Below, one piece after another: positions 1 through 45,600 of a DNA stretch of 64,000 nt. Positions within the stretch are counted from its first letter, which is position 1. Every line of letters starts with the position of its first letter. The notes under the pieces were generated by a model, which saw only the letters and a program-made list of their open reading frames with translations, did not search any database and was not told the origin of the DNA. The DNA is from Candidatus Eiseniibacteriota bacterium. GTDB lineage: Bacteria; Omnitrophota; Gorgyraeia; 2-02-FULL-51-18. Position numbers and translations under genes: made by a program. The DNA lies in NCBI GenBank assembly GCA_035496715.1, contig DATJEK010000095.1, positions 264-64,263 on the forward strand, given 5' to 3'.

Positions 1-120
1 ATTGAAATGCAGCGACAGCGCCATGAAGAACGAGAGGTTGATGAAGAGCACGTCGATCAGCGCGATCATCTGGACGACCGGCAGCGGACGGACGTAATCG
101 CTCTGCTTGAAGCTGATCAT
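1..120 (-). CDS. ExbD/TolR-family biopolymer transport protein. N-terminal 40 codons only; the gene runs off the window start
   Basis: The reverse complement of 1-120 translates to MISFKQSDYVRPLPVVQMIALIDVLFINLSFFMALSLHFN. This matches the ExbD/TolR N-terminal TM-helix pattern (P..IDV.LVLL.IFM). The ATG (complement of 118-120) overlaps the upstream gene's stop in an ATGA arrangement, consistent with translational coupling. Confidence 0.6.
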   Translation of the reverse strand, partial: MISFKQSDYVRPLPVVQMIALIDVLFINLSFFMALSLHFN

Positions 121-836
121 CGGGCGAGCACCCGCGCGATCTCGGAGGAAAGGGCCTCGGCGGTCGTCGTGATGCGGCTGACGCGCCCGCGGAAATACGA
201 GTACGCGATGAGCGCCGGAACCGCGATCACCAGGCCGAACGCCGTGTTGATCATCGCCTTGGCGAGGCCCTGGGTGAGGACCGCGGGGTTCAGCGTGCCG
301 AGCTTGAAGTAGTTGAACGCGTCGATCATGCCCAGGATCGTGCCCAGGAGGCCGATCATCGGCGCGATCACGGCCATGTCGCCGAGATAGGTGAGGTTCT
401 GCCAGAGGCGTTCGATGCGGGCCTTGCCTTCGTACTGGATCGCCTCTTCGACGATGCCCTTGCCCTTGGCGGCTTTCTGCAGGCCCTTCTCGACGATCGC
501 CGAAATGAGGTTCGGCTGCTGACGGCAGACCGAGAGCGCCTTGTCATATTCTTTGCGCTCGATGAGAGACAGCAGGTTTTCGGTCATGTCCTGGGGGATC
601 AGCTTCTCCACGCGCACGTTCAGGAAGTGATAGATCACCACGGCCACGACGACCACCGAAAGCACGCCGAGGAAGTAGATGCACACGCCTCCGGAGGCGA
701 TGAGCTGGAGGAAGGTCATTTCCTTGTCGCCCGGACGCGCGGCGGCCGCGGCGGCGGCGTGCGCCGGCGCGCCGGACAGCAGCGCGAGGACGGCGGCGGA
801 ATACACCCAGGGACACTTGGCAGCGCGTTTATTCAT
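117..836 (-). CDS. MotA/TolQ/ExbB-family proton-channel protein (239 aa)
   Basis: ORF-track translation has an N-terminal signal/TM segment, three hydrophobic helices, and the family-typical motif IAPMIGLLGTILGMIDAFN in the C-terminal half. It is followed directly by the ExbD-like gene with a 4-nt ATGA overlap. Confidence 0.85.
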   Translation of the reverse strand: MNKRAAKCPWVYSAAVLALLSGAPAHAAAAAAARPGDKEMTFLQLIASGGVCIYFLGVLSVVVVAVVIYHFLNVRVEKLIPQDMTENLLSLIERKEYDKALSVCRQQPNLISAIVEKGLQKAAKGKGIVEEAIQYEGKARIERLWQNLTYLGDMAVIAPMIGLLGTILGMIDAFNYFKLGTLNPAVLTQGLAKAMINTAFGLVIAVPALIAYSYFRGRVSRITTTAEALSSEIARVLAR

Positions 837-3900: not shown

Positions 3901-6900
3901 GAGGCGCGCGAGTTCCTTCTCGTCGAACATGAGCGGCCCGTAAACGGCCGAGAATTCGGCGCGCACGGCCGCGTCGCCGCGCAGTCGGTCGAGCACCGTC
4001 TCGTCCGCGACCCCGGCGGCGGCGGCGACCGTCTGGCGCGTGAAAACGGGGTATTCCGCCTCGGGCGACGAGACGGCGGCGGCCGCGCGCAGGCGCGTCA
4101 CGCGGGTCGAATTCAAAATCGCGGCCGTCCACTCGTCCATCAGGGCGCCCCGCACGGCGAGCCTCACGGAAGCGTTTTCGGCCACCCGGCGCGCGAGCAG
4201 GTGACGATTGACGGAAACCCCGTCGGCCTTCAGCTCGGCGACGATGGTTTCGTAAACCACTTCCCGGACGACGGCGCCGGAGCGGTTGGCGCGGCGCAGG
4301 CCGTCGGCCGCCCGGAGGATGGCCGCGTCGAGCTCGCCGAGCCGCGGGGCGCGGGCGCGCGCCAGGATCCCCGCGCGGTCGGCCTCGGCGATCCGCTCGA
4401 GCCGGGCGACGCGTTCGCGGACCGGCTCGCTGTCGTCGAAATGGACTCGGAACGTCTGCTTCGAGATCTCGAGGCGGCGGTTCAGGCGGTACCCGCGGAC
4501 CGGATAGAACCGCTTCGACGGATCGACTTCGAATTCGCCGATGAGGGCGTCGAGCCTCTGCAGGATCTTCGCGCGGACCGCGGGATTGCCGGCGAGCCGG
4601 GCGCCCTGGCCGAACGCGGGGAGCTCGAAGAGCCGGTTCAGGAGTCCGTCGCTGAGATGCCGGTCTCCGGAGGCGTGGATGTCCGAGGCGGCGACGGCCA
4701 GGAAAACGGTCTTCATCTCCTCGGCGAACGCCGCGCGCTCCGTCTCGGCGAGGATGCCGCGCCGCACGAGCCCGCGCGACCAGTCCCCGATCGGGTCGCG
4801 TCCCGTGAGAAAGCGCGGCTTCTCCTGCTTCCAGCCGTCGGTCAGAAGCCAGGGATCGGTGTGTCCGAGCACGACTTTCGAGACCGCCTCCTGCACGAGC
4901 TGTCCCTCCCCCGCCGCGTGGAGCAGCGCCGGCGCGATCTCCGAGCCGTAAAGCTGGTGGGAGCCTCCTCCCAGATCCGTCGCGTAGCCGATGTCGTGAA
5001 ACGCGTTCGCGTACACGAGGATGCGCCGGCCGCGCTCGCTCAGCGCGCCGATGCGGACGATCAGCGCCTCGAGCCTGCGCTGGTCGCGGACCGCGCCGAA
5101 CTCGTCGAGCGCGAGGAAACCGCTCAAGTCGCCGGCCAGGAGCGCGTCCATCGCGCGCGCGTCGATTTGCAGGTGCTCGGAGCGCGTGCGCCGGCGGCCG
5201 ACCTGCCGCCCCTCGGCGTCGCGCATCGGCCACGATCCCTGGGCGGGGTTCTTCGTGTCGAACGCCTCGAGCGGGAACCCCTGCTCGGCCAGCGACAGAA
5301 GATAGGTCTCGGCGGGAGCCGGGGAGGCGAAAGCCTCGCCGGACGACGGCGTCCCCTGCGGGGCCGGCGGAAAGAAGGGCCGCGCCAGCTCCTCCATCTC
5401 CTCCCGCCCGGGCGTCAGGAAGGTGCGCCGGCTCGGGAGGTAGTCGGAGAGCTTGGAGGTGAAGCCGAGGCGCCGGCCGATCGCGCGGGCGATCGCCAGC
5501 GCGTAGTAACGGATCTTGTCGAGCGCGCGCTCGAAGCGGCTTTCGGTGTGCACCTTGAGATTCGCGGGGAGGAACGAATTGTCGCCGAAGACGAGCAGTT
5601 TCCAGCGCCGTTCGGCGGGCTCCCACGCGAGCACGGTCACGCTCGCGTTCCGGGGGTTGAGCAGCGCCTCGTACATCGGTTTGTATTTCCGGGACGGGAT
5701 CTGGAGCGCCGTCATGACCGCCAGGAGAATCGTCATCCCGTGGGAGCCCACGAGCACGTTCTCGTCGTTCGAACGCGTGACCGCGTCGAGCCATGCCGCG
5801 AGCCCTTCGCGGAAGCGGCGCCCGGAATAGAGTCCGTTCACCTCGTACGCGTCCGGATCGCGCGTGAAGCGGGCCATCCATCCCGGGAAGAGATCGATGC
5901 CGCTCGACACCGGCACGCCGCCGATCGGCTGGATGAGCACCTCGCGGAATTCCTTCAGCATCTCGGGCGCGCGGCCGGAGAGCCCGGCGTAGGCGCCGAC
6001 GGTCTCGTAGGCGCGTTCGAGATCGCTAGAGACGATGCGGTCGAACCGGGGGCCCGCGGCCTTCAGGAACTCCGCCAGCGCGCGCGCCTGCCGGCGGCCG
6101 CGCATCGTCAGCGGCGAGTACGCGTCGTGCGACTGCACGAAGCGGAAAAGGTTCGAGACCGACTCGCCGTGGCGCGCGAGCACGACGACCTTCGCGTCCG
6201 GATGTTCGGCGCGCCAGGCGTCGAACCCTCCGAAAAACCCGGCGGCCGTTTCGAAAACCGGCCGGAGGCGCTGCTTCTCCGACTCGTCGAGCGCGGAGAC
6301 CGCCAGGCGGGCGCCCGCGTTCTCGCCGAGCAGGCGTTCGCGGAGCAGGCCCTCGAGGAACCGCCCGCTCCCGTCCAGGTTGAGGGCCGCGCGCGTCCAG
6401 CGGTATTCGTCGCGGTCCTCGAAATAGAAAGGCTCGAGGCCGTTGCGGATCAGCAGGTAATTCATCATGAACCACGCCAGGCGGTGATGGCCTTCGGCCG
6501 CGTGGGAGCTCTCAAAAATCTTGTCCTGGCGGGACGCGCGCACCCGGGTGAAACCGGGCAGCTCGGCGAGCAGCTGGTGGACGCTGATCACGGCGTACAG
6601 GGCGGCGGCGGCGCGGACCGTCTCGGCAGGCGACGCGAAGCGACGGTTGGCGGCCCTCAGCACGTCCGGCCACACCTCGGCGAGCGACGCCAGACGCCGG
6701 GCGCGTTCGGCGGGCGTGTAGGCGGCGTTGCGCCGGTCCCCGCGGAACAATTCGTAGAGCGTCACGACCTTCTCCCAGGTCAGCGGCGCGACCGGGTCGA
6801 CCTCCCGGTTGAAATAACGGATCGCGTTCCTGAAATCCGCGTCATCGATCAGCCGGCCCGCTTTCGCCGGGTCCAGAGCCAGCCGCGCCCCCAGGGCTTC

Positions 6901-9900
6901 GAGGGGCAGACGCGCGCCGTGGTCGTGCTCGTGGTCATGATCGTGGTCATGGAAGGCGGGCGGCTCCGCGTCCGGTCCGTGCTGCGCGCGGTAGAGCGCG
7001 CGGCGGATCCTCCACTGCACCCACGTGTAGAGCGACGGGAAATAACCCAGGAAGAAATGGAACACGGCGTTCAGGCGGAAAGACTCGCTCGCCATCACGC
7101 CGCCCCGCACCTCGGTGCCGTTCACCTGCAGGGCCCCCGAATAGCCTTCCTTGCGGGCGCCGTAGACGACCCGCGCCAGGCCCAGACGCGCGAGCATCCT
7201 CGTGCACTTGGCGCACGGCTCGAGCGTCACGTAGAGCGTCGTGCCCTTGATCGCGTCGGCGAGGCTCGCGTCGAGCGCGACGAAATCGTTCGCCACGCTG
7301 TCGAAGAGGCGTTCATAGGCCTCGGAGTCGTCGAGATACCGGGCGGACTGGGCGCGCACCGACGCCAGGCGCGCCAGCGCCTCGTCGCGAACCGACGGCG
7401 CGATCGGAGCGGTGCGGGCGATCCGTTCGAACGCGTCGAGAAACGCGAAATGCTCGGCGTGGAGCTGGTTCTTCGCCTTGTTGTACCCGCGGCCGATGAT
7501 CACGCCGTCCCTGACGACGACCGCGCCGACCCGGGCCGAGAAAATGCTCCGCTCCTTCTGCGATTTCCTCGCCTCCTTCATCGCCTCTTTCATGAAGAAA
7601 CGGTCCGGATCCGCGGCGTCGGAGAGCCGCGCGCCCGACGGAGGCAGGAATTCGGGATACGCGGCCATGAGCGAGCGGACGGAGCCGTCGAGCTCGTCCT
7701 GGATCGCGTAAAGCGGCGAACGCGTCCGCTCTTCCTTGAGTTTATGGCCCGCCTTCAGGTCCTTGGCGTCGGCGAACTGGATCCAGAAGCGGCTCTGCTC
7801 GGGGCTCAGGGTCGTCCAGAATTCGAGCGCCGTGCCCGCGTCGAAGGTCGCCAAGGGCACGCCGAGCTTCCTCATGCCCTCCCGCACGGCCGCGCGGAGC
7901 GCTCCCCAGGCGGCGCGTCCGCGATCGCCGCTCTCGCCTTCGGCGAGCGACGCCAGATAGGCGCGGTAGCCCCAGTAGGACAGGTCGATCCAGCGGCGGT
8001 GGTTGTCCGCGACGTCCCCGTGGATGCCGGCGAAATGCCAGTCGGGGTTCGTGACGAGGTTGCCGAAGCGGAGCTCCAGGCGGTCGCGTTTCCGGGCCGG
8101 ATCCGACGGGTCCTGCGCCTCGTCGTTTTTCCGGAACGGGACGAGCATCTTGGCGAGGAAGAGCCTCGCATTGCCCGTGAAGAGGATCGCCGTCAGCACC
8201 GAAAGCGTCTTTCCGACCTCGGCCACGCGGGAGTCGGCGATCCCTTCCGGAAGCAGGAGATTCAGGTGCAAGGAATACGCGCCGCCTTTTTTCCCGTCCG
8301 CGACCCACGGGCCGGTCTGCGCTTCCCTGCCGGGATACGCGGCGAGCGTGGCGTGATCGGGCAGATAGCCGAATTTTCTCAGGAAGCGGTAAATCGCCTC
8401 CTGGTCGCGGGGATCCTCGGAATACGGCAGCGCGTATTCCACGATGCCGCCGTAGCCCAGCGGGATCCCGGCGACGGCCGCGAACGCCTTCGCGTCGGAC
8501 GCATTGAAAACGTCGACGTGGTGCCGCCAGACCTCGACCTCGGTGCCGGCCGTCAGATCCGTCTTCCGCTGGGAGTCGTCTCTCGCGCGGGCCGCGTAAT
8601 CGGCCTTGAGTTTCTCCGTGACGGCGGCCGCGTCGAGGCCGGACCGGAAGCCCTCGCCGCCGTCCATGAGGAACCGCACGCGCGCGGCGGGATACAGGCT
8701 CCGGTAGAGCGACGCGAGCGTCTCGTCGCGGGCCAGGAGCGCGCGGGTCAGGAGGATCATGAGACGCGCCTTTGAATTCGCCCGGAGCCTCTCCTCGAGC
8801 GGCACGGCGTCGGGACGGCCGGCCTCTTTCTCGAGCGCGGCCGCCAGGATCGGGAACACCCGCTCGTCCCGGGCGGCGGCGTGGAGGATCAGTTTGGCGA
8901 CGTTTTCCGTCCGCTCCGACTGGCGCAGGGTCGCGAACGCCTCCACGAGCCCGGCCAGCTCCTCCGCGGAGGGCCGCGGGCCCTGGGCGTACGCCGCGAT
9001 CACGAGTTTTTCGAGCTCTTCGAGGCGCGCCGGGACGTCCTTCACGGGACCGTCCCAGTACACTTCGTCGGCCGCGAGGGCGAAGCGCTCGAGGCCGTCG
9101 GCCAGCGTCGAGGAGGCGAGCCTGGCGCCCCGGCTTTCGGCCGAGGGCCGGCGGAAGCCGGCGATGAGCATTTTTTTGATCTCGGCCGTCTCCGAAGGTT
9201 CTTTGTAAAGGCCGGCCAGCGCGTGAAAGAGCGTCCTCACGTACTCCGGGTCCGCCTCGTAGTCCACCGCCAGGTCCTGGACGCTCGCGAACCGGGCATT
9301 CAGCTCGGCGGCCGTCTCCTGCGCGAGGCCGCGGCCGAAATCGGCTTCGAACTTCTTGAGCAGGTCGTCCATCGCCCCCGCCAGCGACACGGCGCGGTCG
9401 TAGGTCAGCCCGAGCGTTTCGAAATAGACGTAAAGGGAGTTTTTCCGCGCGGCCGTGCGGGCGAAACCGCCGGTGACGTTGGCCGACTCGCCGGGCATCA
9501 GGATCGACAGGAGCGTCCGGCGGGCCTCTTCTTCGAAGTGCGGCGCTTCCCCGTTGGCGCCCTCGGCCATCCGGTGATAAACCAGGGCCGTGTTGCGGAG
9601 CATCGTGATCGGGAGGAGCCCACCCTCCTCGGCGGACAGGCCGAAATAATTGACGGCCTTGGTGAAGTGAAGCCTCGCCGCGGCGAGATCCTTGCCGTCG
9701 AAGAAATACATGGAGGCGAGCGTGTATTCGCGGCGCCCGAGGTCGATGAGGTCCGCCTGGACGTTGTAGAGATGTCCGGTGCGCTCGCGGTTGCGCTCCG
9801 CCTCGACCACCAGGCGCTCGACCCGGACCGATTCCCGTTCGATGACGGCCTCGAGCGCGCGGATCTCGTCCGCGAAGTCGGTATGCGTCTCGCGCAGCGC

Positions 9901-12900
9901 CCACTCCACCCACTCGCGCACGAGCGGCTCGGCCTCGCTCGGGTCGAAATAGGCTTCCTTGAGGCGCGACACCGCCTCGGGCCCGCCGAGGCGGCCCAGC
10001 GTCCGCGCGGCGTTGGCGCGCACGCGGTAGTACTCGGAGGAGCCGGACAGGAGCAGCCGGCCCATCAGCGCGACGAGCTCGCGCGCCTCCGCCGGTTCGA
10101 GCATCTGCACGGGGATGCTTCCGAGGCGGTAGGCCGCCGCGCGCCGGGTGGTCTGGTCCCGCGAAGACAGCTCCTGTTTCAGCTGTTTCAAATCCCTGAG
10201 ATAGAGCTCGCCGTTGGCGTAGTCGAAGACCGCGATCTTCCGGGCGAGGGCGTCGTTCGTGTTCTTGGTCAGAAGGTATTCGTAGCGCGCCTTGAGAGGG
10301 CCGGAGAACTCGGAGGAGATGAGACGGTTGAGATGCCGGAGCTCCTCGAGGTTCATCCTCGAGACCACTTCGGCGAACTCCGACGGGTGGCGACCCTCCC
10401 TTTCGAGCGTCTCGAACACTTCCAGCAGATTCGAGAGCGTCCTCTCGTTGATGCGGCTTCTCAGCTGGGACTTGCCGAGATGGGCCGGCGGGATGCCGTA
10501 CACGTCGATCAGGGTTTCCTGCCGGGCGATCGTCGCGCGGGCGATGTTGATCGTCGAATACGGGATGAAGAGGATCTTCTCGCGTTTCATGAGCTCCACC
10601 GCCCGCGTGGTGACCGCGTTCGCGGACGCTTCTATGACGATCTCGCCGCGGAAACGACGCACGCTGTCTTCGTCGAACGTGTGAGGGGCCGTGTCGACGA
10701 CCAGCGCGTTGGCGTCCTCGAACTCCTGCGGCAGGAGCGGCTCCGATCTCTCCACGCGCCGGACCTCCGCGCGCTCGGGCAGGTGGTTCATCTCCACGAT
10801 CTGGTCGAACGGCATGCCGTTGACGAGCTTCGCGTTCACCCGTCTCAGGACGGGCCACGACAGCGGCTGCTGGCTCTCGAGGACGGTTCCCGCTTCCTGA
10901 ATGCCGTGGATCTCGACGCCCGTGTCGAACGCGTAACCGTCCATCAGGCTCGTCGTCGCGGTCACGCTCTTGATGCTGTACCCGAGGAAGGCCACGCGAA
11001 GCCGGCGGCCTTCCATGAAGAGCTTCCCGTCCCCGCGGAGGTAGGGGCTCTTCGCCAGGAACGCCAGCGCCGCGGCCATCCCGTCGCCCAGGCTCGTCAT
11101 GTAACGCGGGAGGCCCCCGCTGCTTTCGGAAACGCCGACCACCGGATGCGAAACGCCGCCTCGCGCGCGGCCGCGCTTCACGACGCGGAGAATGGCGTCC
11201 ATGTCCTGGATTTCCAGCCCCTGGCCGGGGCCCACGATCAGGTGCCGGCCCAGGACGCCCTGTTTTCTCATGGTTTCCGTCCAGCGAGCCAGCACGCGCG
11301 TCTTGTCCGCTCCGGGCGAGGCGACGATCTGCATCTGGGCGCCGTCCAGGAAGCTCGAACCCCTCCTCAGGTCGTCGGCGGTGTGAGCCAAAAGCGGCAC
11401 GAAAGTCAGGTCCGCGGCGCGCGCCCGCCGTTCGGCGTCGTCGGCGGGGGCGAAATAATCGAGCGGGCCGTCCGCGATGATGAGGTTCGCCGGCTGGCCG
11501 GCGCCGTAGATCGCCACCAGCGACTCGAACCCGTCCTTGTCGTCCGCGGCGGCGGGCGAACGCGAAAGATAATAGATCCTCCAGGGCATTTCGGCCGGGC
11601 GGCGTTCGGGCGCGATGCCCTGCATGAATTCCGCCGGGTCGAGCGAGACGAAGGAAACGGCGCCCGCCGTTCGGGGCAGGAAGGACTCGCTCCGGACGAT
11701 CAGTTTCCGCAGGTCGGCTCCCGGCAGGAGGGCGCGAAGATTTTCCTCGGCGGAGAGACGCGCGCCCGCCGGAGCCTCTTCACCGGCCGGAGGAACTTCC
11801 TCGTCCGCCGCCGTCGCTTCGGACGGGCCGGCCCCGCGGGTGCGCGCGCGCATGCCCACCGTCTGGAAGGTTTCGGGACTGCCCGAGAGCTTGAGCCGCT
11901 TGAACAGGTTCCGCACGTCGACCGCCGTGAAGCGGCCCTCCGAGATCGCGGCGATTTCGTCCGGCGCGGGACGCTGGTCTTCGTGCGCGGCGCGGTAGCG
12001 GGCCACGAGCGCTTTCAGGTCGGCCAGCAGCTCGGCGTCGGGACGCGCCCCCGCGGGGACCGGCCTGGCCGTGCGGCCTTCGACCCGGATGCCCACCGTT
12101 TCGTAGGTCTCGGGGCTGGCGGCCCTCTTCAGTTTCCCGAACAGCGAGCGGATGTCCGCCGCGCTGAACCGGTCTTCCGAATGCTCGGCCAGCTCGTTGG
12201 GCGTCGGCAGCGGTCCGTGCGCGGCTCTCCAGGAGAACACGAGGTCCGCCGTCTGGTTGGCCGAAGGCTCGTAACCGTTGGCGGTCCGGAACTGCTCGAC
12301 CATCCCGATCACGGTCTCGACGTCGGGGTGCTCGGCGTGTTCGGCGCGGTAATCGGCGACGAGGGTCTTGATCTCGGCCAGCGTCTCCGCGGGCGTCTGG
12401 GTCGCGGGCTTGATGCCGAGCTCCTGGTACGTGACCGGCTTGCTCGCCTTCTTGAGCTTGTAAAGCAGGTTGTAGATGAGGCTCTTGGTGAACTGGCCGT
12501 CCGAAGCGGCGGCGACCTGGTCGATCGAGGGCTGGGAGCCGGCGGCGAACTTCGTGGCGATGATCGCCTTCAGGTCGACCAGGAGCTCGTCGATGGATTT
12601 GTATTCCGAGACGACGCCGGGCGCGTCCGCGTCGTACGGGATGCCGTGGAAGTCCATGTTGAGCCGGATCGTGTGCGCGTCGACCGCGCCGTCGGACTGC
12701 GCGGCGACGTTGTTGGCCGTGGGCCGGGTGCCGGGGGGCACTTTCTTCACCAGTTTCGACAGGTACTCGATCCATTCCTCCTTCGTGCGGCGCGTTTTCA
12801 GGACGTACGTGGGTCCGTCGCCGTCGGCCGTGAACGGGATCGACTCGTAGTCGAACGCGGCGTAAATCTGGCGCACGGAGAGGGGGCTCGCGAACGCCCG

Positions 12901-15900
12901 GGCCGCCTCGGCGAGGTTTTCGACGGTCTTGCGCTGCGAATCGGGAACGCGCATGGCCAGCGCCCGCAGGAGGACGATCCATTCGTCGCGGTCCCTGCGG
13001 GACTTCGCCAGGAGCCGTTCGATCTCCGGCTTCTCCAGCTCCTGCACGGCCGCGTTGAAGTCGCCGGAACGATGACGGTAGACCTGGTCGGCGGTGATCG
13101 GATTCGGGAACGCTTTCGACTCCTCGGCCACGTTCTCGGGCGTGCGCCGGGCGGGGTCGGGAATACGCATCGCCAGCGACCAGAAGAGCGTGTTCCAGTC
13201 GTCGGGAGTCTTGGCGTCCTTCGCGAGAAGCCGCTCGATGACCGGGGTCTCCAGCTCCTGGAGGAAAAGGCGGTACTCGTCGGCAAGCATCCGGAACGTC
13301 CCCGTGTCCCTGCGCTCCAGGGCGCCGTAGAGCGCGTTGACGTAGAGCGTGTGCGGAGACGGCAGGTCGGGACGGGCGGCGGGCAGCGGCAGGCCCAGCT
13401 CGATCGACTTGCGGGCGATCCGCGTGTACCGGAACTGCCCTTCGACGATCTCGTCGTAGAGTCGGGTCATCGCGCGCTGTTCCCGCGCGCCCGCATGGAA
13501 ACGGCGCAGGCGCGCCAACTTGAAGAGGAGCGGAATTTCCGCGTCGGTCGGAGCGGTCGAAGCCGACGCCAGGTACTCGGCGAGTTCCGCCGGCGCGAAT
13601 TGGCGCAGGTAGCGGTTGCCGCGGACGTGGTCGACGATCTGCACGACGCCGGGCCGGCCGCGGCGGCCGGCGCGCGTGACGACCTGGCGCTCGGCGCGCT
13701 CGGTGCGGCTGTGGTGCGTGCTGAGCACGATGAGCCCGGCGACGACGCCCAGCGGGCCGTGCGTGTCGTAGGGTTCGTACATCTCCTTGTCGAGCTTGAT
13801 CTCCTGCCCGCGGCTGGCGACCTGCGCGGCGATCGTGACCGAGAACGCGTCGCCGATCTTGTTCCAAAGGCCCGCGTCGCGGTTCTCGTCGCGGCCGTCG
13901 ATGACGCGCACCGCGTTCGGCTGCAGGAAAGGCCGCCGCGCGTTCGCCTGCTGGATGAGCTCGCGCAGGCGCTCGGCCTCCTTCGGCGATTCGGCGTTGA
14001 TCAGGATCGGCCGGCCGCTCGCGTAGGCGCTCTCGACGAGCTCCACGAGGTAGGCGTGCTTCTCCTCGATCGTCATGAAATAACGGACCGGCTTCTCGTC
14101 GCGGCGGCTCCGGTAGACCTGCGGGAGCTCCTTGATGCGCGCGCGGTAGAGCTGCCGCATCTCCTCGCGCGTGTGATCGCCGATCACGCCGACGACGGCG
14201 CTGAACGGGAGCCGGTTGTAGAATTCGGGCGTCGTCATCACCGACTCGATGACCGTCTCGCTCTGGACCGGGATGCCCTCCTTGATCTCGAGGAACGTGT
14301 GGATGCTGCGGCCCCAGCGCTTCTGCAGCTTGGTCTCGCCGGTGTTCTCGTCGCGGATCATGACCTTGCCCTCTTTCACGAAATAGCTGACGTCCTTCTC
14401 GAAGACCTTCATCGCCTCCAGGGCGGCCAAAAGCATGTCGAAGAGATCGCGCGAGCCCAGGAGCGCGTCGAGATTCTTCACGTCTTTCAGTCTGTCCCGC
14501 AGGCGGCGGGTCGTTTCCTGCCGGTCCCCGAGGAAGCGCACCGACAGCGGCTCGACGGCGTAGTCGACGTTCTCGCGCAGCGAGCCGGCCGCCGCCCAGA
14601 TCGTCTGGTACACCTTCGCCATCTTGGCGTCGAGCCGGTAGACCTTGCTGAAAAACGCCAGCGGATCGTTGACGACATCCAAGAGCGGCGTGTCGGCCTC
14701 CTCGACCAGGAGCCACGGCGGAGTCCCCTCGGGATGAAGCTTTTCCCCCTCGGTGCCGAACCAGTCGCTCATCCAGAGGAAGATGAGCTCGTCGTACGGC
14801 CCGTAAACGACGTCGGACTCCGCGAAGATCTTGCGGATGCCGGCGCGGCGCGTCATCACGCTCCCCTGGCCCTTGGCGGCCAGCGGACGCAGGTGCTTGT
14901 TGGTCTTGCGCAGGTTGTTCGGCTCCTCGTCGAACTCGTAGGCGTTGTTGTTCAGCACGGTCGCGACCTTGAGAGCGAGGCGGTGCAGGATGGCGCCCGC
15001 CACCTGCGAGTCGCGCGCGGTCAGGAGCGCGCTCCAGTCGTGCACCTCGACCTTGCGGCCCGAGAGCACCTGCAGATAGGAAGCGAGCACCGTGGTCAGC
15101 GTCTTGCCTTCGGAGGGCTGCATCCCGACGATGTTCTTGTTCTCGAGGAGGAGGAGCGCCGCCTGGATCTGGTTCCTGGCCGGTGCGCCGCCGACGTACT
15201 GCACGGTGTCCGGATGGACGCGTTTCACGCTCGACAGGCCGATGCGCTCGTCGTTGCGCTCGATCTCGGCGCGGATTTCGCCCTTGCCTCCCCGGCCCGT
15301 CTCGCGGTGGCGGAAACCGGTCACCTGGCCGGACTCGATGACGGGCGTGTACCCGGCCGGGAGCGTGGAGCTCTGGATCTTGCCGCTTCGCATCACCACC
15401 TCGGCCTGGCCGCCGGGCAGTTCCGCGTGACGGATCACGTACGTGACTTCGTTCTGCGCGGCAATGCGCCCGGCGGCGACCGAAAAGAGCGCCACCGCGT
15501 ATCCGGCGTCCTCGGCGGTCATCTCATGGCCGCGGAGCCGCCGCTTCAGCTCTTCCGACTTTTGGAAGATCGCCTCGTCCGAATCCGGCTGGATCTCCGG
15601 CAGGCGCCGGTCGCGCTCGCGCAGCACTTCCTCGAGAGGGAATCGGCCGACCATGTCGCCGGCGGCGACGGGCGCCGGAGGGATCGAAAGCTCGGCCACC
15701 TCGTCCCTCAGCCGGTCCACGAGGGCCAGCCTCGCGCCGGCGACCTTCGTGATCGTGGCTTCCGCTTCGTTCACGGCGTAGGAGCCGGCCGGCAATTGGA
15801 TCTGCTCGAGATAGGAGCCCTGGCCGGTGAAACGCGTGAAAAGCGTCCTCTCCGATTCGCCCTGGCCCCACTTCAGGCGGAGCACCCACTGCGCGGGCGG

Positions 15901-18900
15901 GCCGTCGGAAGAGGCTTCGAGAAAATACGCCGAGACGCGCACGACGGCCCCCGGTTTGATCGCCGACAGGCCGATCGCGACCGCGTGCGTTTTCTCGTCG
16001 GGGCCCCGGCCGCTTCCGAAATAGAGCGTGGCGGCGTCCGCGCGGCCGCTGCCGGAGGTCTTGAGCGAAATCTCCTTCTCGGCGAACGGACGGCTTTCGG
16101 GATTCGAGTAGGCGCCGGCCAGCGCGAAACGGGCGACGCGCTTCTTGGGGTCCTCGATGTCGGAGCCCTTGGCCGTGCGCACCTCGCCGGAGCGTTTCAC
16201 GACGCGCAGGAGCGCCTGCAGGTGGCTCTTGTTGTCCGCGAGGAGATAATAGGCGTCGTAGTCCCTCTTGGACGCGGCGCGGAGCACGATCCGGTTTCCG
16301 GAAGGAAGATAAGCGGCCGCGGCCGGGACTTTCGCTCGCAGGCCTTCGAGAGTCAGCACCGTGTATCGCGCGGTTTCGCCGGGGACCCACGGCCCGTTTT
16401 CGATCTTTTCCTTGGTCTCCCCCTCGCGCCAGCCGCCGTGATGGTGGAACGGGAACTTGGCGGTCAGCGAATAGGAAGGCTTGTCCGCTTCGGCCGTCGC
16501 GTCGAGCGCTTTCAAGACCTCCGGGTCGGCGAATTTGGCGCCGCGCGCGGCCCAGACGATGAAGTCCCGCGGCGAGAGCGCAAGCTCCGTCAGATGCGTG
16601 CCCGTGTCTTCCGAAAAGCGGTAATAACGGGGCGAGCGGCCCTCCCCTTCCTCCTCGGCGACGAAGAGGATCTCGTCCTTCTCGGGGAGCATCGGCCCCA
16701 GGTAAGGAAGTTTGGTTCTGAGCTCCTGGACCGTCGTGAAACGGAAGCGCACCTTCGTGCCCGGATCGTGACGCGTGAGGACCGCGATCCGCCCGGCCGC
16801 CCCCTCGGGCTGCCAGGAGACGTGCTGGATCGTCCTCGACGAGCCCGCCGTTTCTTCATACGACCCCGAGGGGACGCCCAGCGGGAACCGGCCGTCCTCC
16901 CCGGGCCGGTAGGCGTTTTTCTCGAGCAGCGTGCGCAGGACCTGCGGCTCGGCCGCGGAAACCGGGAAATACCGGATCGCGAAGCCGTCGCCCTTGCGGA
17001 CGATCTCGAACGGCGTGAAGCGCCGGTAGTCGATGTCGCGGGTCTTGCCCGAGCGCTTGCGCTCGCGCGTCTCGATCGTGATCTCGTCGCCGTCCTTGAC
17101 CGGCTGGAAGGCGCTCCACTCGTTCGCGGCCCCTTCTTCGCCGTCCTTCATCTTGACCTGCGTCGCCTTCGAGAGGACGTAGACGTCTTCGCCGCGCGAA
17201 ATGAAGACGTCTTCGCGTTCCAGGTCGAGCCCGTTGGCGTAGCCGGGCAGGGCGTCCCAGCGGGCCAAAAGATGAAGGAGCTGCCGGAAGTTGATCGGCT
17301 GGTCCTGCGCGTACGGTAAAAAGCCGCGTTCGGGAACTTCGAACGGGACGTCGTTGACGGTGAGGCGAAGCCGCGCGGACGCCAGACGCGCGCCGGCGAC
17401 GACGGGCGGAGCCGGCGGACGGGACGTGACGGCTTCCATCGGGCGCGCGGCCGAAGGAGGCTCTCCCGCGCGCACCGGCGAGGGCCTTTCGGGCTTGCGA
17501 AGGACGTATACCTGCCGCGGCACGCCGGTGTGGAGCGCGTGAGCGGGCACCGCCTTGTTGAGCACCTCGAAGCCGAGCGCCCGGAAGTCGTCCGAATCGA
17601 CCATCAGCGTCGTGTAGCCGGTCGCGATGAAGTAACCTCCCGGCTCGAGCGCTTCATAGGCCCGCCGGGCCATCACGAGCGCCTGTTCGCGGGTGACGAC
17701 CATGTAGTTGATGCCGCCGAGCGTCGTCAGAAGATGCGCCTTCGAGCCGATCTTCGCCTCGAGCGGCGCGTCCTCGGTCAGGTCGGCCTGGACCACGCGC
17801 GCGACGCCCGAGTCGCCGATGCGCCCCTGGGCCGCGCGGACGAGACCGGCGTTCCGCTCGAGCAGCACCAGCTGCGCGAACGGCAGGTCGTAGTCGCCGT
17901 CGGCGTAGCCGTCGTACAACGCCTCGTGAAGTTTGCGCAGAAACCGGCCGTCCCCTCCGCCGAGGTCCGCGACCACCGCCCGCGAGACGCCCGCGCCGTT
18001 CAGCGCCCGCAGGACCCGCAGGGACGCGTCCACCATCGCGGCGTCGATGCCCTGATCGTAAAAACGGTAGCCGTCCTGCCGCTGCCACGAGTTCCAGTGG
18101 CCGTCCTCGAACGGCTGTCCGAACGAGACGCCGGTGTGGAGCTCAAATTCATCCCCCTTCAGGAGGTCCAGAAAACGCGGCGGGAAATAATAGGGGTTGC
18201 GCATGTCGTCGGGCTCGAAAAGGAGAACAAGCCGCTTCTGCGAGGGCACGTAAACCGCCTGGGCGCCCTCCATGAGCAGGCGGTCGAAGACGAACTGGAC
18301 TTTCTCGACCTCGAGCGGCGCTCCGGGCGGCAGATCGAGCGACAGGCCCCGGCCCGAGAAGTCCATCGACCAGTAAACCGGCTCCGGCGTAAAGGCGTCG
18401 CGGATCTCGATCTCGCGGTCGGAGGCGAGGCCCTGCAGCGTCGTCTTGATCTGTTCGAGACGTTCGGTCTCCGTCCCCGTAAACACGGGCCTCACCTCCA
18501 GCCCTTCGAACTTCACGGCGGCCAGCCGAGCCCCCAGGCTCGCAGTCCCGAGAGGGTTCCCCTCGAGGGACAGTCGAGCGCCCGCCCTCACCATCGTCTC
18601 GGACGGCGCCGGCGGCTCTTCGCGCCGGATCGGCGCGGGCGGCCGCTGTTTCGGATAAAAGTCCGCCAAACGGTCGGCCGCGACCAGCGAGATGCCGATG
18701 AGGATCGCGAAGTCGGCGGGATTGGCGATCGAGCGGTACATCACGATCATGTCCGTCGCGCCCTGGAAGAGAAACACTTCGGTGACGTTGGAAATCCATC
18801 CGGCCACCATGACCACCCAGCCGACGTGCGCCCCGGCGCGGCGCGCGAACACCACGGCGGCCGTCCAGAAGGCCTGCGCGATCACCAGCGCCGTCAGGAA

Positions 18901-21900
18901 CTGCCAGGGCTGGAAGATTCCGCCGTAATAAATCCGGTCGCCCGCGAGAGACTTCACCCACCAGTCGAGGAGCGGGATCCCTCCCAGGAGCGCCCAGACG
19001 ACGGGTTTCGAGAAGGTCTCCTGCGAAGGGCGCCCGGAGCTGCGCGCGAGCGCGACGGCGCCGTAGACGATCATGAAAAGGGCGGTCGACACGAGGCTCT
19101 GCATCGGCCAGAACGACGCGGAGAGGTAGGCCAGATTGACCGTCGCGTCGAACGTCCAGGCGTACGCGGACGCCCTGCCGTACGCGAGCGCCTGAGCGGC
19201 GCGCAGCGCCAGGAGTCCCGCGTAACCGGCCGCCAGCGCCGGGAAAAAGGCGACGGGCCCCAGAAGATGGAGCGCGGCGGTGGCCGTGAGGACGGGCACG
19301 AGCGAGACGAAAAAGTTTCCGATCGGCGCGAGCCTGGCTCCCCGCACCGCCGGCGGGGCGGACGGCGCCGGAGGCGCCTCGTACAGGGTCTCGTAGCGCA
19401 TCGGCAAAAGACGCCGGCGGCCGCTCACGTCTTCGTCGTGGCGCGGCGCCAGGAGGACGTTGCTCACCAGGAGGGCCGAGGGAACGACGCCGGGCCGCTC
19501 GTTCGTGACGATGAGGGAACCCCTGGCGTCGTTGTAATCGAAGAAAGCGCCGCGGCGCGGCGCCGCGTTCAGCGCGCGGAAGTAGTCCTCCTGCAGCAGG
19601 TTTTCGATGTGCATTTCCCGCAGGCCGCTGACGAAGCCCTTGCCTCCGCGGCGCAGGAGCTCTTTCACGTCGCGCACGGCGGCCATCTTGTCGATCACGT
19701 ACGGCAGCGTCTCGAACGTCACGAGGACCAGATCGAAGCTCTCCTTCCCGTAGACGGGCGCCAGGCCCTCCTCGAGATCGTGGTATTGGACGCGGGCGTC
19801 GAAGTCGGCCAGGAAATTTTCGAGCTCCTCGCGGGACGGCACGCGCGCCACCAACCCGCCGCGAGCCAGATCCTTCAGGTATTCCTCGTACACGCGGGAG
19901 GGAACCCGGATCGGGTCCTTGTTGACGAACGTCAGGTCGAGCGCTCGGCCGTATCGGCCCCGGAGATTGCGGATCACCTCTCCCCCGCCCGCGCCGACCA
20001 CGAGCATGCGGGCCGATCCGCGCGAGGCGATCGCGTCGCGGATCGCGTCGTCGAGTTTTCCCGCGTAAAGGTTGTCTTCGGTCGAGAGCGGCCGCAGCAC
20101 GTTCCCCGGCGCGAGATAGGGATTGATGCCGCCGGTGTGGATCAGCTCGGAAAGCGCGTAGCCGGCGTCGCTGAAATGCGAGGCGGCGCGCGCCAGGTAG
20201 AGAGCGGAGATCTCTCGGCCGTTTTCGTTCACCTCGACCTCGGCGCCCGCGGGGCCGAACCGCGAGAGCGACCGGAAGGACGGCAGCGCGTTGAGCTCCT
20301 CGGCGAGGTCCTCAAACCGGCCCGCGGCCCATTCAAACGTCGTCCGGAGCGTCTCCCCGATCGGAGCGTCGGCCAGACGCCCGAGCGCGGCGCGAAGTTC
20401 CGCGGCGTGACGGACGAATTCGCGGGCGCGCCGGTCGTCCAGATCGCCCTGGGAGAAAACCTGCTCGACGGCGGCCAGCGATTTCACCGCGCGCTCCAGC
20501 GGCCGCGAGAGTTCGACGGCGAGCCGGGCGCCCGCGGGCTCCCGGTCGAGGACGCTTTCCATCTCGCGGAAAAGCCACCACGCCTTCTCGAGCGACACCA
20601 CCAGGCGCTCGCGGGCGGAATCCGAAAGATCCGGATGCTGGCGCGCGGCCGACAGAAGATCGGCGGTCCTCGACGTCCAGGTGCGGAGTCCGCGGACCGC
20701 CGCCGCGTCGTCGTCCGGGCGGCGCAGAGCGGCGCCGCTGGCGGAACGCAGGCCCGCCAGGAGTTCCTGCGCGTCCTCGCGCATCCCGGCGGCGCCGGCG
20801 CCGGCTTCGTCCAGGTGCGCGATCAGACGGTTGGCCTCATGGACGTGGGAAGCGGCCAAAACCAGCAGGACGTTCACCCGCTGGGGAGTCGGCAGGGCCT
20901 TGGACGCCCAATCCGCGAAGAAAATCTGAAATTCGTTCTGGAACGATTCCATGGCGCGGCTGAAATCCGCGCTGCCGGCCGCGAACGGCAAATCGAGCCG
21001 CACGACCAGCCCCCAGGCGAGCATGAGGGCGGAGCGGAGCGGCTCGAGCTGCCGCTGACGGGACATCTCCGCCGCATGGTCCGAGAACTGCCGCAGGCGC
21101 GCGAGCGTCTCCGCGATGGGTCCGGCTTCGGGCGTTTCTTCGGGCGCGCGGCCGATCTCGGCGATCAGGTCGTCGACGGCCTTCGCAAAGTAGCCGAGGC
21201 CGCGGCGCGCGAACTCGAAACCGTCCTCCGGCGCGGAAGGCCCCGCCAGGCGGGCTCCCGCGTAAAGGATATCCGAGACGGGATCACCCGCTCGCTCGGG
21301 ATAGAGGTTCGCCGCCTGTTCGGCGACCCAGTAGAACTTGTCGGATGCCCCCCGCAGGGACTGCGCTCTCAGCTGGACAAGCCGCAATGTCTCCAGAAGC
21401 GTGAAATGCGTTTCTCCGCCCAGAGCGAACTCCTCGCCCTTTTCCGAAAGGATCGCGCGCAGGCGCGCCTCTTTACCCGGCGTCCAGCGCCGGGCTTCGC
21501 GCTCGAGGCGGTTATGGATGACGCGTCGGACGGCCAGCGCGTAGGCGGCCGCCTCGGCGTCGCGCGGCGGCTGCGGCGAAAGAAGCCGGCCCAGGCTCCA
21601 GAGGATCGCGTAACGCTTGTTGCGCCGCCCGCGGACGGGATCGAATCCGCGCGGTGTGCGCGGGTCGGCGAGGAACGTCACGACCGACGCCAGGGGGTCG
21701 GCCAGGTGCTGGATCAGTTTGCCGGGCGACAGCCGGGGGGCGCGCGCCTTTTCCGTCTTGTGCGCGACGGCGTTCGCCGCGTACGCGCGCACGGTGTAAT
21801 CCTGGTCGAGAAGCGCGTAAAGCACGGCTTCCCTGCGCACCGAAGCGAAGCGCGGGTCGTTCAGGATGCGCTCGAGCGCGCCGAGGCGGTCGCTGACGTA

Positions 21901-24900
21901 CTCGGCGCGAAGCATCGCGCCGGTCCGGCGCAGGAGCTCCGCCTGGTCGAGCTCGGCGGGCAGGCCTTCGGGCTCCGCGGGTTCGCGGCGCTTGAGAGCG
22001 ATGAATTTGAAATCATCGGCTTGCGCTTCCACCGGCACGGCGAGGACGGCGGGCGAGGCGGCGTTGGCCGGTTCCCACCGGCTGAAGTCGAACGCCCGCC
22101 CTTCGGCGTCGGACGCCGTGAACAGGGCCGGATCGAAACCCGCTTCCCCGCGGTCGGGCAGCTCGATGCGGACCTGCTGTTTCGTTTCCCAGGGTCGCAG
22201 GTCCAGGAGGAGCGTCGTCCAGTCCCCGGCGTCCCCCTTCCAGGCGAGAGTGAAATAGCGGTCGCGGTTCGAATTGTTGAGCACGCGGAGGAAGCGCTCT
22301 TCGCCGGCCGGCACGCGCCGCAGGAATTCCTGGAGCAGTCCTCCCCACGGCGCCTCCTCGACCAGGTCTTTGAGCGCCGCGAAATCGGGCCGCGAGCGCG
22401 CCTCTTCGAGCGTCAGGAAGGGATGCGTGTGCAGGTCGTCGGGGTCGCGGTTCCCGCCGACCGTCTTGATGAACTGGCCGCGATGGCCGATGAAATCGCG
22501 CAGGTCGATCATCGCGGGCACGCCCAGATGCGCGAGCGCCAGGAGGAGCATCGCCGCGGGGCGCGAGGGGCCTCCCATCGCCTTGAGCGAGAGCTGGTCA
22601 AAATTGGACAGATACGCCAGGACGTGCGGGCGGCGGGCGATCGCGTCGAGCACGGCCGGCTCCAGGGACGAGGCGGGCCGTCCCTCGCGCGCCATGCGGT
22701 AGTAGGCCTCGAAGAGCTTGCCCGAATAGGCGGCATCCGCGCCCAGCGCGAAGAGCTCGTTCTGGTCGGAGGGGCTGGGGACGTCGTACGTTTCCATGTT
22801 GAAATGCACGTCGCGGCCGTAGCGCTCCTGCGCGTAATAGCGGACCTCGGCGAAGACGCCGCGCCACAGCTGCTCCTGCCGGGCCCACCAGGCCTCGAAG
22901 GTCTCACCCTCGCGGATGTCGAGGCCGTTCGCCGCCAGCCACGGCTCGAGCGCGACGCCGCGGGACTTCAGCTCGTCGAAATAGCCGCGCACGTTGTTCT
23001 TGAGGAGCAGGTGCCCGAGATCGATCCGGAACTCGCCGACGCCCTGGTCGACGAGCTTCTTCATCGCTTCGACGTAGTAGCGCCTGTTTTCGGGATGGAA
23101 CGGGTTGGGAATCGCCTGGTCCGCGCTGTGCGAGCCGAAGAACGCGAAATGTTTCACGAGGATCACGCGCTCGGTCCCGCCCTCGTTCAGGCGGACGGCG
23201 AACCAGGAGGGGTTGTCGGCGAGGAGCCGCTCGATCCGCGAGCGCTTCCCGGCCTCGTCCTGCTTCCTCCAGTCCCCGTTCCAGTCCGCGCCGATCTCGC
23301 GGTAGAACATGCGGCGATAATTGGTCTCGTTGACCGCGCCCGGCGAGAGCCAGGAAATGAAATCCGTGACGAGCGTGACGCCCATCGCGGCGGCGTCGGC
23401 GCCGAGCGCCTTGAAATCGGCCTCGACGTCGCCGTCGGACAGAAGCGGGTTTTTGCGGCGCATGTCGTCGACGGAAAACGGGTTGCCGAACGAATCCCGC
23501 AGCTCGAGGCCCGCCAGATCGGCGCGGTGCGTCTCGTAACCGGAAACCTGCACCGTCGCCTCGCCGTCCCGAAGATAGTGCGTGCCGGCGTCCGGCACGC
23601 GGTGGACCTCGCGGGAGAGCTCGCTCATCCCGAAGAGTCCGCCGTACACGTAGAGCTTCTTCACGCCCTTCTGCCGCAGCGACGGCAGAAGCTCCCTCAA
23701 TTTCTTGAGGCTGTTCCGGTAGACGAGCCGGCCGTCCCTGAGCTCGGCGCCCAGGTCCATGAGGCTCACCGAGAGGACGAGCCGGTCGATCCCCGGCGCG
23801 GCGCGCAGCTCCGAGGCGTCCGGACGCGCGGAAAGCCGGGCGCCGCGGCCGGCCGTTTCGACGTAGCGGTCGATCGAGACCGCCTGCTCCATCCGCCCCC
23901 AGGCCAGGTAGAGCTCCGTGAACGCGACCCCGATCTCGTTCGGTCCGCCGCTCAGCGCCTCGACGTCGCGCTCCACGGCGTCGCGGATCTCGTTCAAGAT
24001 GTTCCGGACGCGGTGCTGCGCGCGCTCTTCGGCCGTCGTCGTCGGGCGCCGCTCGAGAAGCGAGAGGAAAAGCGTCAGAGACTGGGCGAAATTCATCGTG
24101 AGCACGTCCTGAAGGCTGAGCCCCGGGCGGCTCGAAACCGCGTAACCGGCGGCCACCGCCCAGGAGTCGGGCGCCGCGACGCGCCAGGTGTAACGGCCGA
24201 AAATCCTCGCGACTTCCGGCATCGCGAACATCGACCGCAGGCTCTCGCGGCCCGCGTCGAAGGATCGGAAAAGCTCCGCCGAAGCGCCGTCGCGCGTGGC
24301 GCGAAGGTATTCGGCGAAACCGGCCGCGGTTTCGTTCGAGGTCACGGGGAGCTCCGAGGCGTAATCGGAAACGGCCCTTCCCAGGAGCTCCTGGAACCGC
24401 GCGTCCGCGTTCGCGAGCGTCTTGAAGCCGGGATCCGCCAGCAGCTGTTCGCTGAAATAGGACGGCCCCAGCTCGAAATCGGTCTCGTCGGCGGCCAACC
24501 GCGCCCCCGCCAGGTCGTACAACCGGCTCCAGAGGGCGCCGAACGCAGGCTCTTTCGCGGACAAGGGATGCGATTCGATGAGCGTCTGAGAAAAACGGGC
24601 CGGGCCGGCGATACTTCCGGCCAGCCGCGCGATCGCCACCACGAACGGCTCGCTTTTCGCGGTCGCCAGCGCGTTCCGGAACGCCGCCGAGGCCGGATCG
24701 AGATCATAAAAATAGCCGGACAGGAGCGCTGTGAGGGGACCCGTGAAGTCGACGTTGAAATCTTCCGGCTCGTTGTCGTAATACGACGTGACCCGCCGTT
24801 CGTGAACGACGTCGTAGATCAGGCGCGCGAGATCCAGGAACCGGTAACCCGCCAGCCTGCGGCGCGCCGTCTCCTGATTCGCGCCGCCGGCGACGATTTC

Positions 24901-41892: not shown

Positions 41893-42045
41893 TTAGACTA
41901 TGAATATATAAATATATTTACTAAGAGACGCGAATAAAAAATACGCGCCAAAATAAACTCTCGAGGAGTCCATTTTTTACCTTATTTTGCCGTTTTCAGG
42001 GTTTGAAAATAGAGACCGATTTTACCCATGTCTATGCATGGCATA

Positions 42046-42074: not shown

Positions 42075-42115
42075 AAAAATGTGAACTCGTAACACTAATA
42101 TATGCATAGACTTAC

Positions 42116-42206: not shown

Positions 42207-42217
42207 CAGACTTTTCG

Positions 42218-45200: not shown

Positions 45201-45600
45201 GCGTGTTCCAAACGGTAGTCGACGAGGCGCAGATTGAGGATGAGCTGGGCGAACGACGCGTACTGGAGCGCCCGGCGGTATTCGCGTTGGAGCTCCTCCG
45301 GCACGTGGGGCCCGGCCAGCTCGAGCTGCTGGATGACGCCCGCGATCTCCCTCGTTTCGGAGGTGCGCATGATGAGCTGCTGGGTCAGGTCGCGGCGGAA
45401 ATTCACGGTCCGGTTGATCGTGTCGATGTCCGCGATGACCCGGCGCGCGCTTCCCGAGGCGGCCTCGACCTCGCTCAGCTGGCGCGCGAAATCGCGCGTG
45501 AAATTGAGGAGGACCGGCAGGATCTGCGTCACGGTCGCCCCGCCCTCGTTGAGGATCGCCAGTCTCGCGCCCGCCACCGCGTCCCTGGCCCGGACGAGAT
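42218..45600 (-). other. C-terminal ~1,100 aa alpha-helical region with HEAT/ARM-like repeats (AIEAVRDIGAAVQ..., IRLAAIDAIAGIQS...)
   Basis: Repetitive A/L/I-rich helical hairpin pattern in the translation. No catalytic motif recognised. Confidence 0.3.

Follow-up and report, generated by a model that had tools for sequence, protein, structure and literature searches.

A truncated SecA-like module inside a giant protein encoded by an Omnitrophota genome

What does a SecA-type motor do in the middle of a giant protein? This question is raised by a stretch of 64,000 nucleotides (the window) from contig DATJEK010000095.1 of assembly GCA_035496715.1, a Candidatus Eiseniibacteriota bacterium that is placed under Omnitrophota in GTDB. 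An earlier note on this DNA had reported a SecA-type ATPase segment at window positions 13575-15345. The segment is indeed found there on the minus strand, inside an open reading frame (ORF) of 13,654 amino acids (aa) that is called g1 here (928..41892, minus strand), and it corresponds to g1 residues 8850-9440. Judged by profile and fold, it is a SecA-derived ATPase module and a member of the SecA superfamily. The module ends early compared with canonical SecA and retains its main catalytic residues. We consider it fairly probable that the module belongs to a conserved handling machinery, as an active ATPase that would move unfolded polypeptide, most plausibly the giant chain itself.

Identity, extent and active site of the module

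The SecA cassette is the span between two consecutive copies of a GARL motif (positions 8719 and 10043 of g1). It occupies 11767..15738 on the minus strand (aa 8719-10042) and is 1,324 aa long. The SecA-like module that is common to relatives lies within this cassette at 13273..15570 (minus strand; aa 8775-9540). It consists of the N-terminal NBD1 helices, NBD1, the preprotein cross-linking domain (PPXD), NBD2 and the first scaffold helix. The limits were taken from HMMER matches spanning query positions 141-787, BLAST spans of 8880-9551, upstream helices that align in relatives, and hhalign. The module reaches further than the interval given in the earlier note, to about 13273-15570. The distance that had been given from the transmembrane (TM) cluster to the module is in agreement with the hydropathy profile, where the motor core begins about 1,100-1,200 aa after the cluster at aa 7518-7770.

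The module is matched by Pfam SecA_DEAD (E 1.6e-21) and P-loop_SecA (E 9e-14). The PPXD (14287..14619, minus strand; aa 9092-9202) is matched by SecA_PP_bind with E 2.3e-11 over profile positions 3-110 of 110. NBD2 (13573..14103, minus strand; aa 9264-9440) is covered by P-loop_SecA and includes motifs V and VI. Down to E 1e-8, every match of the module in the phmmer search of PDB is a SecA or SecA2 protein, and the best one is B. subtilis SecA (E 1.6e-37). The profile of the module and its relatives was aligned by hhalign to canonical SecA columns 75-643 of 904 with a probability of 100% and E 4.5e-79. The AlphaFold2 (AF2) model of the module has a pLDDT of 72 and a pTM of 0.61. The first 36 Foldseek matches of this model are all SecA or SecA2 (E 1e-31 to 1e-15), and helicases of DinG type come next (E 7e-11). 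A generic superfamily 2 (SF2) helicase (DEAD-box or DinG/XPD) is ruled out by the presence of the PPXD and by the lead of SecA over helicases in profile and fold searches. The claim that the segment is a SecA-type motor rather than a generic helicase holds, and no profile search assigned it to an SF2 family other than SecA.

The module ends after the first helix of the SecA helical scaffold, which is recognised as the long helix after NBD2 (13399..13539, minus strand; aa 9452-9498). This helix corresponds to residues 563-609 of the AF2 model, with low confidence in its distal half. The hhalign alignment enters canonical columns 586-643 and ends at column 643 of 904, which covers NBD2 and the first scaffold helix. 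Conservation with relatives ceases about 40 residues past this helix, near aa 9540. The remaining C-terminal part of the cassette (11767..13272, minus strand; aa 9541-10042) appears from the translation to consist of several alpha-helical repeats, each about 85-110 aa long. This part has no Pfam match at E<=5 and is not conserved with relatives.

No trace of the helical wing domain, of the two-helix finger or of the C-terminal tail of SecA was detected anywhere in g1 or in the second giant ORF of the window (g2). Neither ORF has a match at E<=5 to the SecA wing-and-scaffold family (Pfam SecA_SW). The canonical SecA hidden Markov model (HMM), run with all HMMER filters off (--max), found no second SecA match elsewhere in g1 or g2. 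The three parts are regarded as absent rather than displaced because of these two negative searches. On the same unfiltered search we also rejected a split SecA whose wing or finger would lie in another part of g1 or g2. No SecA-type zinc finger exists among the three Cys of g1. The NCBIfam models for SecA and SecA2 orthologs scored 118-182 bits against cutoffs of 725-1493. Among them, the SecA equivalog TIGR00963 scored 166.3 bits against a cutoff of 800 bits, and the SecA2 equivalogs (TIGR03714, TIGR04221, TIGR04397, and NF012136) scored 122-155 bits against cutoffs of 725-1100. By the measure of these models, the module is neither a SecA nor a SecA2 ortholog. It is not a complete SecA either. 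The earlier note had described the domain as complete and had suggested a check for the two-helix finger. That description does not stand, and the check came out negative. In canonical translocation, the two-helix finger is reported to insert into SecY (Zimmer, Nam and Rapoport 2008). With both finger and wing missing, the module cannot work exactly like canonical SecA on SecYEG.

The motifs were compared after 162 modules had been aligned to the canonical SecA HMM. Walker A (15097..15117, minus strand) reads P-S-E-G-K-T-L with the Lys at K8930. This Lys is invariant in the closest clade (10/10) and is present in 26 of the 27 embedded modules. The Thr is also kept, and the first Gly is replaced by Ser. 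The DExD-type Walker B (14692..14706, minus strand) reads V-E-E-A-D, where E9064 stands in place of Asp and the catalytic Glu (E9065) is kept. The Glu at the second position of the DExD box is invariant in the closest clade. The motif III equivalent (14173..14190, minus strand) is G-V-I-G-D-H and has diverged from the canonical GMTGTA. Motif V (13798-13818, minus strand) is ASRGQEI with R9361-G kept. Motif VI (13648-13689, minus strand) is RQVVTRAGRRGRPG and exhibits the R-x3-Q-x3-R-x2-R pattern with R9399, Q9403, R9407, and R9410 kept.

In the closest clade, 9-10 of the 10 sequences keep the Walker A Lys, the catalytic Glu, the R-G of motif V and the R/Q/R/R of motif VI, despite an overall identity of 37-46%. 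This retention at such identity indicates purifying selection on the active site, and judged by its residues the active site of the module looks intact. The Walker A, DExD-type, PPXD and motif VI arginine elements listed in the earlier note are present, and the loss of the catalytic Lys, acidic or Arg residues that it named as a refutation was not seen on alignment. The spacing departs somewhat from the E. coli-like one that it described. The distance from the Lys to the DExD box is 134 residues compared with 101 in B. subtilis because of an insertion of about 33 aa. A further insertion of about 80 aa (15208..15447, minus strand; aa 8816-8895) lies between the N-terminal NBD1 helices and the core. 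In the MAFFT alignment, this insertion is specific to the protein and is not in any of the nine close relatives.

Relatives of the module and the conserved core of the giant proteins

Relatives were collected with HMMER in an exhaustive search across 1.84 billion representatives, which returned 5,119 hits. Word-index searches with the module and with the clade profile returned almost only canonical SecA, and the giant relatives surfaced through the exhaustive HMMER search. The top 10 of the 5,119 hits (E 1e-147 to 1e-65) lie without exception inside longer proteins, of 1,795-6,608 aa. The identity to the query is 37-46% for nine of the ten best relatives in the HMMER search and 24-42% across the ten with BLASTP. 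In most of these relatives the match opens shortly ahead of Walker A and closes where the scaffold helix ends. Canonical SecA proteins rank below the relatives from giant proteins in this search, with about 27-30% identity. One relative (P0008) is encoded in the type genome of Omnitrophus fodinae (GCA_000405945.1). Another (P0015; NCBI MFH1846136.1; 4,930 aa) is assigned to Candidatus Omnitrophota in NCBI and has two SecA-like modules (aa 1378-1868 and 3039-3528). The single match among GTDB species representatives is the locus of an Omnitrophota metagenome-assembled genome (MAG) with 24% identity. The contigs of the relatives have 47-56% G+C compared with 68% in the window.

The truncation is also common to the relatives. 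The canonical HMM has 892 positions, and 24 of the 27 embedded modules stop short of position 700. Free-standing SecA-like proteins of 613-716 aa account for 35 of the 162 sequences analysed, and all except one of these 35 (34/35) exhibit the identical truncation. The gene of one free-standing protein (P0001), from a Planctomycetota MAG, adjoins HlyD/RND-adaptor-like and M50-like genes. M50-like matches, weak or faint, are also seen within the giant proteins P0007 and P0014. The idea of a mobile element or "polyvalent protein" was dropped, as plasmid and phage collections yielded only ordinary secA of about 25% identity.

The earlier note knew of no described precedent for such a protein. This is wrong. 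Passages of West-Roberts et al. (2023; bioRxiv 10.1101/2023.11.21.568195) report divergent SecA_DEAD and SecA preprotein-binding domains in most giant Omnitrophota proteins and in some actinobacterial ones. The same passages describe these domains as lacking scaffold and wing and as placed after transmembrane anchors, and they state that the same genomes encode a normal SecA that clusters apart from the domains of the giant proteins. Self-export is proposed there for the giants, so the idea of self-powered export that the earlier note put forward is an already published hypothesis. The present data support it only indirectly, in that the SecA cassette is one of two parts that relatives have kept. 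A 2026 preprint on complete Omnitrophota genomes also lists, among giant proteins, a PF07517 architecture cluster with 20 members. On the grounds of architecture, truncation and identity ranking, the module belongs to the published class of SecA-like domains of giant proteins, as that class is described in the passages of West-Roberts et al.

The other contents of g1 are diverse. Its Pfam domains include FrsA-like alpha/beta hydrolase, HPr-like, LOG/lysine-decarboxylase-like, SAM methyltransferase, HEAT repeat, cytidine-deaminase-like, and histidine phosphatase domains. Each of the 33 stretches between GARL motifs was searched against the large relatives. Only two of the 33 recur widely: the N-terminal stretch is matched in 15 relatives and the SecA cassette in 21. 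Two further stretches match one relative each and the remainder match none. This distribution suggests a conserved chassis, which would consist of the SecA cassette and a Tiki/TraB-like N-domain, with variable cargo.

The N-terminal conserved domain (40213..41787, minus strand; aa 36-560) is the only other part that is common to the SecA-bearing relatives. It exhibits a Tiki/TraB/ChaN/EreA-like fold with conserved His/Glu/His columns, and this fold is also found in the effectors HopBA1 and RRSP. The first of the three conserved residues is His92, and the other two stand at positions 85 and 453 of the domain alignment. The word-index search with the N-domain returned five fragments only. RRSP and Tiki are endopeptidases.

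The hydrophobic cassette, which is the TM cluster mentioned above, is located at 18583..19341 (minus strand; aa 7518-7770) with GARL motifs on both sides. About 6-7 hydrophobic segments were counted in it by hydropathy, and this count is not secure. The cassette resembles signal peptidase II (LspA) with E 8e-5 and 23.3 bits to Pfam Peptidase_A8, which is under the cutoff of 25 bits. Both Asp motifs (G-A-T-D and N-P-A-D) were seen by eye.

One cassette of g1 (aa 1541-1850; window 36340-37269, minus strand) is matched by aa 2157-2442 of P0014 (phmmer E 5e-47). It is upstream of SecA in g1 and downstream of SecA in P0014, and in both proteins its onset is no more than about 12 residues away from a GARL motif. 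This shared cassette counts as evidence that cassettes may be shuffled as motif-bounded units.

Possible roles of the module

The findings are best explained if the SecA-like cassette is part of the conserved handling machinery of the giant protein and not part of its cargo. The module would be an active ATPase that grips unfolded polypeptide and moves it through the clamp formed by PPXD and NBD2. At the cell membrane it would act, most plausibly, on the giant chain itself or on pieces of that chain. The hydrophobic cassette of the protein would act as the anchor and would leave the module on the cytoplasmic side, where ATP hydrolysis could proceed. The handling step could be export, membrane insertion or processing of the chain. 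The scarcity of Cys is in favour of this explanation. Only three Cys exist in the 13,654 aa of g1 (two that serve the deaminase as zinc ligands and one within the signal peptide) and one in the 7,247 aa of g2. Several relatives are similar, with 1-4 Cys in 1,800-6,200 aa. Such near-absence of Cys in g1 can be read as a transport-competent design.

Four points weigh against the handling explanation. The two-helix finger is absent. Motif III, by which DEAD-type motors link hydrolysis to work, has I-G-D in place of TGT. An extracytoplasmic position of the module would mean no ATP, and the count of hydrophobic segments (about 6-7) from which its side of the membrane would be read is insecure. The position of the hydrophobic cluster relative to the module differs among relatives, and two relatives are without any cluster by simple hydropathy.

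The strongest alternative is compatible with this explanation and supposes that g1 is a polyprotein. The chain would be cut at the GARL[A/S] motifs and the SecA cassette would be freed as a protein of 1,324 aa that acts in trans. The word "embedded" would then describe the precursor only, and the product would resemble the free-standing motor-only SecA-like proteins of 613-716 aa. The cleavage is putative, and we hold this alternative as possible but clearly less probable than the handling explanation. The evidence for it begins with the motif itself. G-A-R-L occurs in 32 copies in g1 compared with 1.4 expected, and the maximum for any 4-mer in 200 shuffles is 12. There are seven copies in g2. 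The residue after G-A-R-L is Ala in 67% and Ser in 22% of the copies. The SecA cassette is preceded immediately by GARLA (15724..15738, minus strand; aa 8719-8723) and followed immediately by GARLS (11752..11766, minus strand; aa 10043-10047), and a further example in g1 is located at 32269-32283 (minus strand). The codons at 39 GARL sites vary synonymously, which means that the peptide and not the DNA is conserved. A DNA-level repeat as the origin of the motif was rejected on the same variation.

The placement of the motif also counts in favour of this alternative. No Pfam domain is interrupted by GARL, and several domains are tightly bracketed: HPr (3203-3304, a cassette of 101 aa and the clearest case), deaminase (11420-11659), and SecA (8719-10043). 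The motif also occurs in P0014, from a genome of 47% G+C, in 12 copies, one of which is eight residues past the SecA module. Other lineages exhibit other motifs, namely [AS]SLG in the O. fodinae group (P0006-8) and RSELR in P0019, P0023, and P0027. Both groups have one such site directly after the SecA module. The cassette shared by g1 and P0014, near GARL in both proteins and on opposite sides of SecA, points in the same direction. Candidate proteases would be aboard in the form of the Tiki/TraB/RRSP-like N-domain, with its conserved His/Glu/His, and the LspA-like hydrophobic cassette. The free-standing SecA-like proteins with the same truncation, 34 of the 35, show what a released product could look like.

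Three points count against processing. The motifs could serve as linkers, docking sites or folding punctuation. The similarity of the N-domain does not follow the type of motif, and the N-domain of g1 is 23% identical to that of the GARL-using P0014 compared with 27% to that of the ASLG-using P0008. According to the passages of West-Roberts et al. (bioRxiv 10.1101/2023.11.21.568195), the cleavage points of giant proteins are not known. The GARL[A/S] sites are possibly processing or linker sites of a polyprotein. In its fullest form, the alternative would join a Tiki/TraB/RRSP-like protease and a finger-less SecA that threads a nearly Cys-free chain with cleavage motifs specific to each lineage, and the SecA cassette would be both a part of the machinery for export and processing and a released product of 1,324 aa. 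We put this forward tentatively, as a minority view. It would supply the missing cleavage points of bacterial giant proteins if it is true, and GARL, ASLG, and RSELR are concrete candidate sites on which the question of processing can be pursued. The literature search on the motif strings matched only surnames. As far as the passages of West-Roberts et al. extend, the GARL-type punctuation and the conserved core of N-domain and SecA appear to be undescribed.

In another alternative, the SecA cassette is cargo. It would be delivered with the other enzymes into prey or host and would disturb the Sec pathway there, for example by competing, without a finger of its own, for SecYEG or for preproteins. 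Omnitrophota giants have been linked with predatory or parasitic lifestyles, and many cassettes of g1 are enzymes of cytoplasmic type that need a cytoplasm. The N-domain has its fold in common with the effectors HopBA1 and RRSP. Scarce Cys, as in g1, is typical of translocated toxins. However, the SecA cassette is conserved while the cargo turns over, which is the pattern of machinery and not of one effector among many, and the module has no similarity above about 25% to any particular host-type SecA. The effector alternative is disfavoured on this conservation pattern and we regard it as unlikely.

An SF2 helicase or translocase that was recruited to nucleic acid by neighbouring helix-turn-helix-like units is more improbable still. 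In relatives, a faint match to a Fis-type helix-turn-helix (HTH_8) directly precedes the module, the NCBI name of P0015 is that of a helix-turn-helix protein, and helical repeats follow the module in g1. However, the helix-turn-helix matches are faint and the repeats of g1 have no Pfam match, SecA is far above all helicases by sequence and fold, and the retained full PPXD, a SecA-specific polypeptide clamp that is not in helicases, speaks against action on nucleic acid. A dead relic, kept as a structural or binding module only, would fit the Glu in place of the first Asp of Walker B, the diverged motif III, the Ser in place of the first Gly of Walker A and several non-canonical positions in motifs V and VI, and it is equally improbable because the active-site residues remain conserved in 9-10 of the 10 clade members at 37-46% identity.

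The handling explanation and the polyprotein alternative bear on two questions about chains of 10,000-85,000 residues, namely by what means they are exported and whether they are cut. The punctuation motifs and the conserved core of N-domain and SecA merit more attention than the SecA module alone.

Gene layout of the window and comparison with known systems

The window has 68% G+C and contains three genes only. The giant ORF g1 was delimited from the ORF list and its translation, the G+C at third codon positions (GC3) and the Pfam domains along its length. The giant ORF g2 (42218..63961, minus strand; 7,247 aa) is directly upstream of g1. A gene of the MotA/TolQ/ExbB family (117..836; 239 aa) comes after g1. 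The G+C at the three codon positions of g1 in its minus-strand frame is 0.70/0.46/0.88, with GC3 up to 0.92 over the SecA region. Such values are expected from a real gene in a genome of 68% G+C.

Shadow ORFs are frequent in high-GC DNA. A plus-strand ORF over the SecA segment (8881..17319) was rejected as a candidate gene and is a shadow of g1 because it exhibits the mirror G+C pattern (0.89 at first and 0.68 at third codon positions) and has no Pfam match. Very long antisense ORFs on the plus strand (2,400-4,700 aa) mirror the giant genes throughout the window, for example at 1552-8775, 8881-17319, 17530-25272, 25336-33099, and 45869-60046.

The N-terminus of g1 contains a signal-peptide-like segment (MKLRALSAVLIAAFFCQDLASA). 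Within this segment, at window positions 41770-41844 (minus strand; aa 17-40), there is a motif common to relatives that reads roughly F-S/F-x-Q-x-L-x-x-A-A. Its conservation is above that usual for generic Sec signal peptides. The true start of g1 is probably Met17 (ATG at 41844) and not the listed GTG. The spacer of 325 bp between g2 and g1 (window 41893-42217) is markedly A+T-rich within the 68% G+C window, which suggests that g1 has its own promoter region. The C-terminus of g1 (window 931-975, minus strand) is ...SATAQAA. Most relatives end in A-A, Q-A, K-A or S-A (for example ...QAKAA, ...ADRAA, and ...FAASA), and the tail is conserved.

The giant ORF g2 has strong transmembrane clusters at aa ~1909-2189, 2868-3028, and 5860-5889. 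A GHMP-kinase-like region was matched weakly, and an HPr-like cassette (aa 6012-6131) has a GARL motif on either side. No similarity between g2 and g1, including the N-domain of g1, was found with BLASTP at E<=1e-5, and no SecA-like module was found in g2.

Among known systems, g1 is closest to the giant Omnitrophota proteins described in the passages of West-Roberts et al. (10.1101/2023.11.21.568195), which include 'Archaeovorin-type' and 'Dockerin-type' proteins. The SecA-like domains of both are embedded, lack scaffold and wing in the canonical sense, and follow upstream transmembrane regions. Both also have methyltransferase, HEAT_2, and Lysine_decarbox domains in common. The published giants exceed 30k aa whereas g1 has 13.6k aa. 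In contrast to them, g1 has no detected dockerin, C39 or S8 domains and keeps the first scaffold helix. The passages are silent on a punctuation motif between cassettes and on a Tiki-like N-domain. The protein g1 is a divergent, high-GC addition to this published class, in which the module can be defined as a motor, a clamp and one scaffold helix without a finger.

Canonical SecA (B. subtilis 1M6N and E. coli 2FSF) and the module share the order of NBD1, PPXD and NBD2, the Walker A Lys, the catalytic Glu, the arginines of motifs V and VI, and the first scaffold helix. The identity between them is about 22-28%. Unlike canonical SecA, the module is embedded, is without the wing, the two-helix finger and the C-terminal lipid/SecB/zinc tail, has the insertions of about 33 and 80 aa in NBD1, and has a diverged motif III. 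SecA2 (M. tuberculosis 4UAQ and C. difficile 6SXH) also differs from the module, as it is free-standing and its scaffold, two-helix finger included, is retained. Motor-only SecA-like proteins that stand free (for example P0001 and P0160) exhibit the same truncation and the same three Pfam domains, but they are encoded by separate genes and are about 27-31% identical.

The MARTX toxins are comparable by analogy only. They are very large secreted proteins in which the delivery parts are conserved, the enzyme cassettes can be exchanged and short sites lie between the cassettes. The fold of the MARTX effector RRSP is matched by the N-domain of g1, with no homology beyond the Tiki-like fold. The RTX repeats and the cysteine protease domain of MARTX were not detected in g1, and cleavage in g1 is hypothetical. 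The MARTX toxins, in turn, do not have a SecA-like motor, which g1 and its giant relatives carry.

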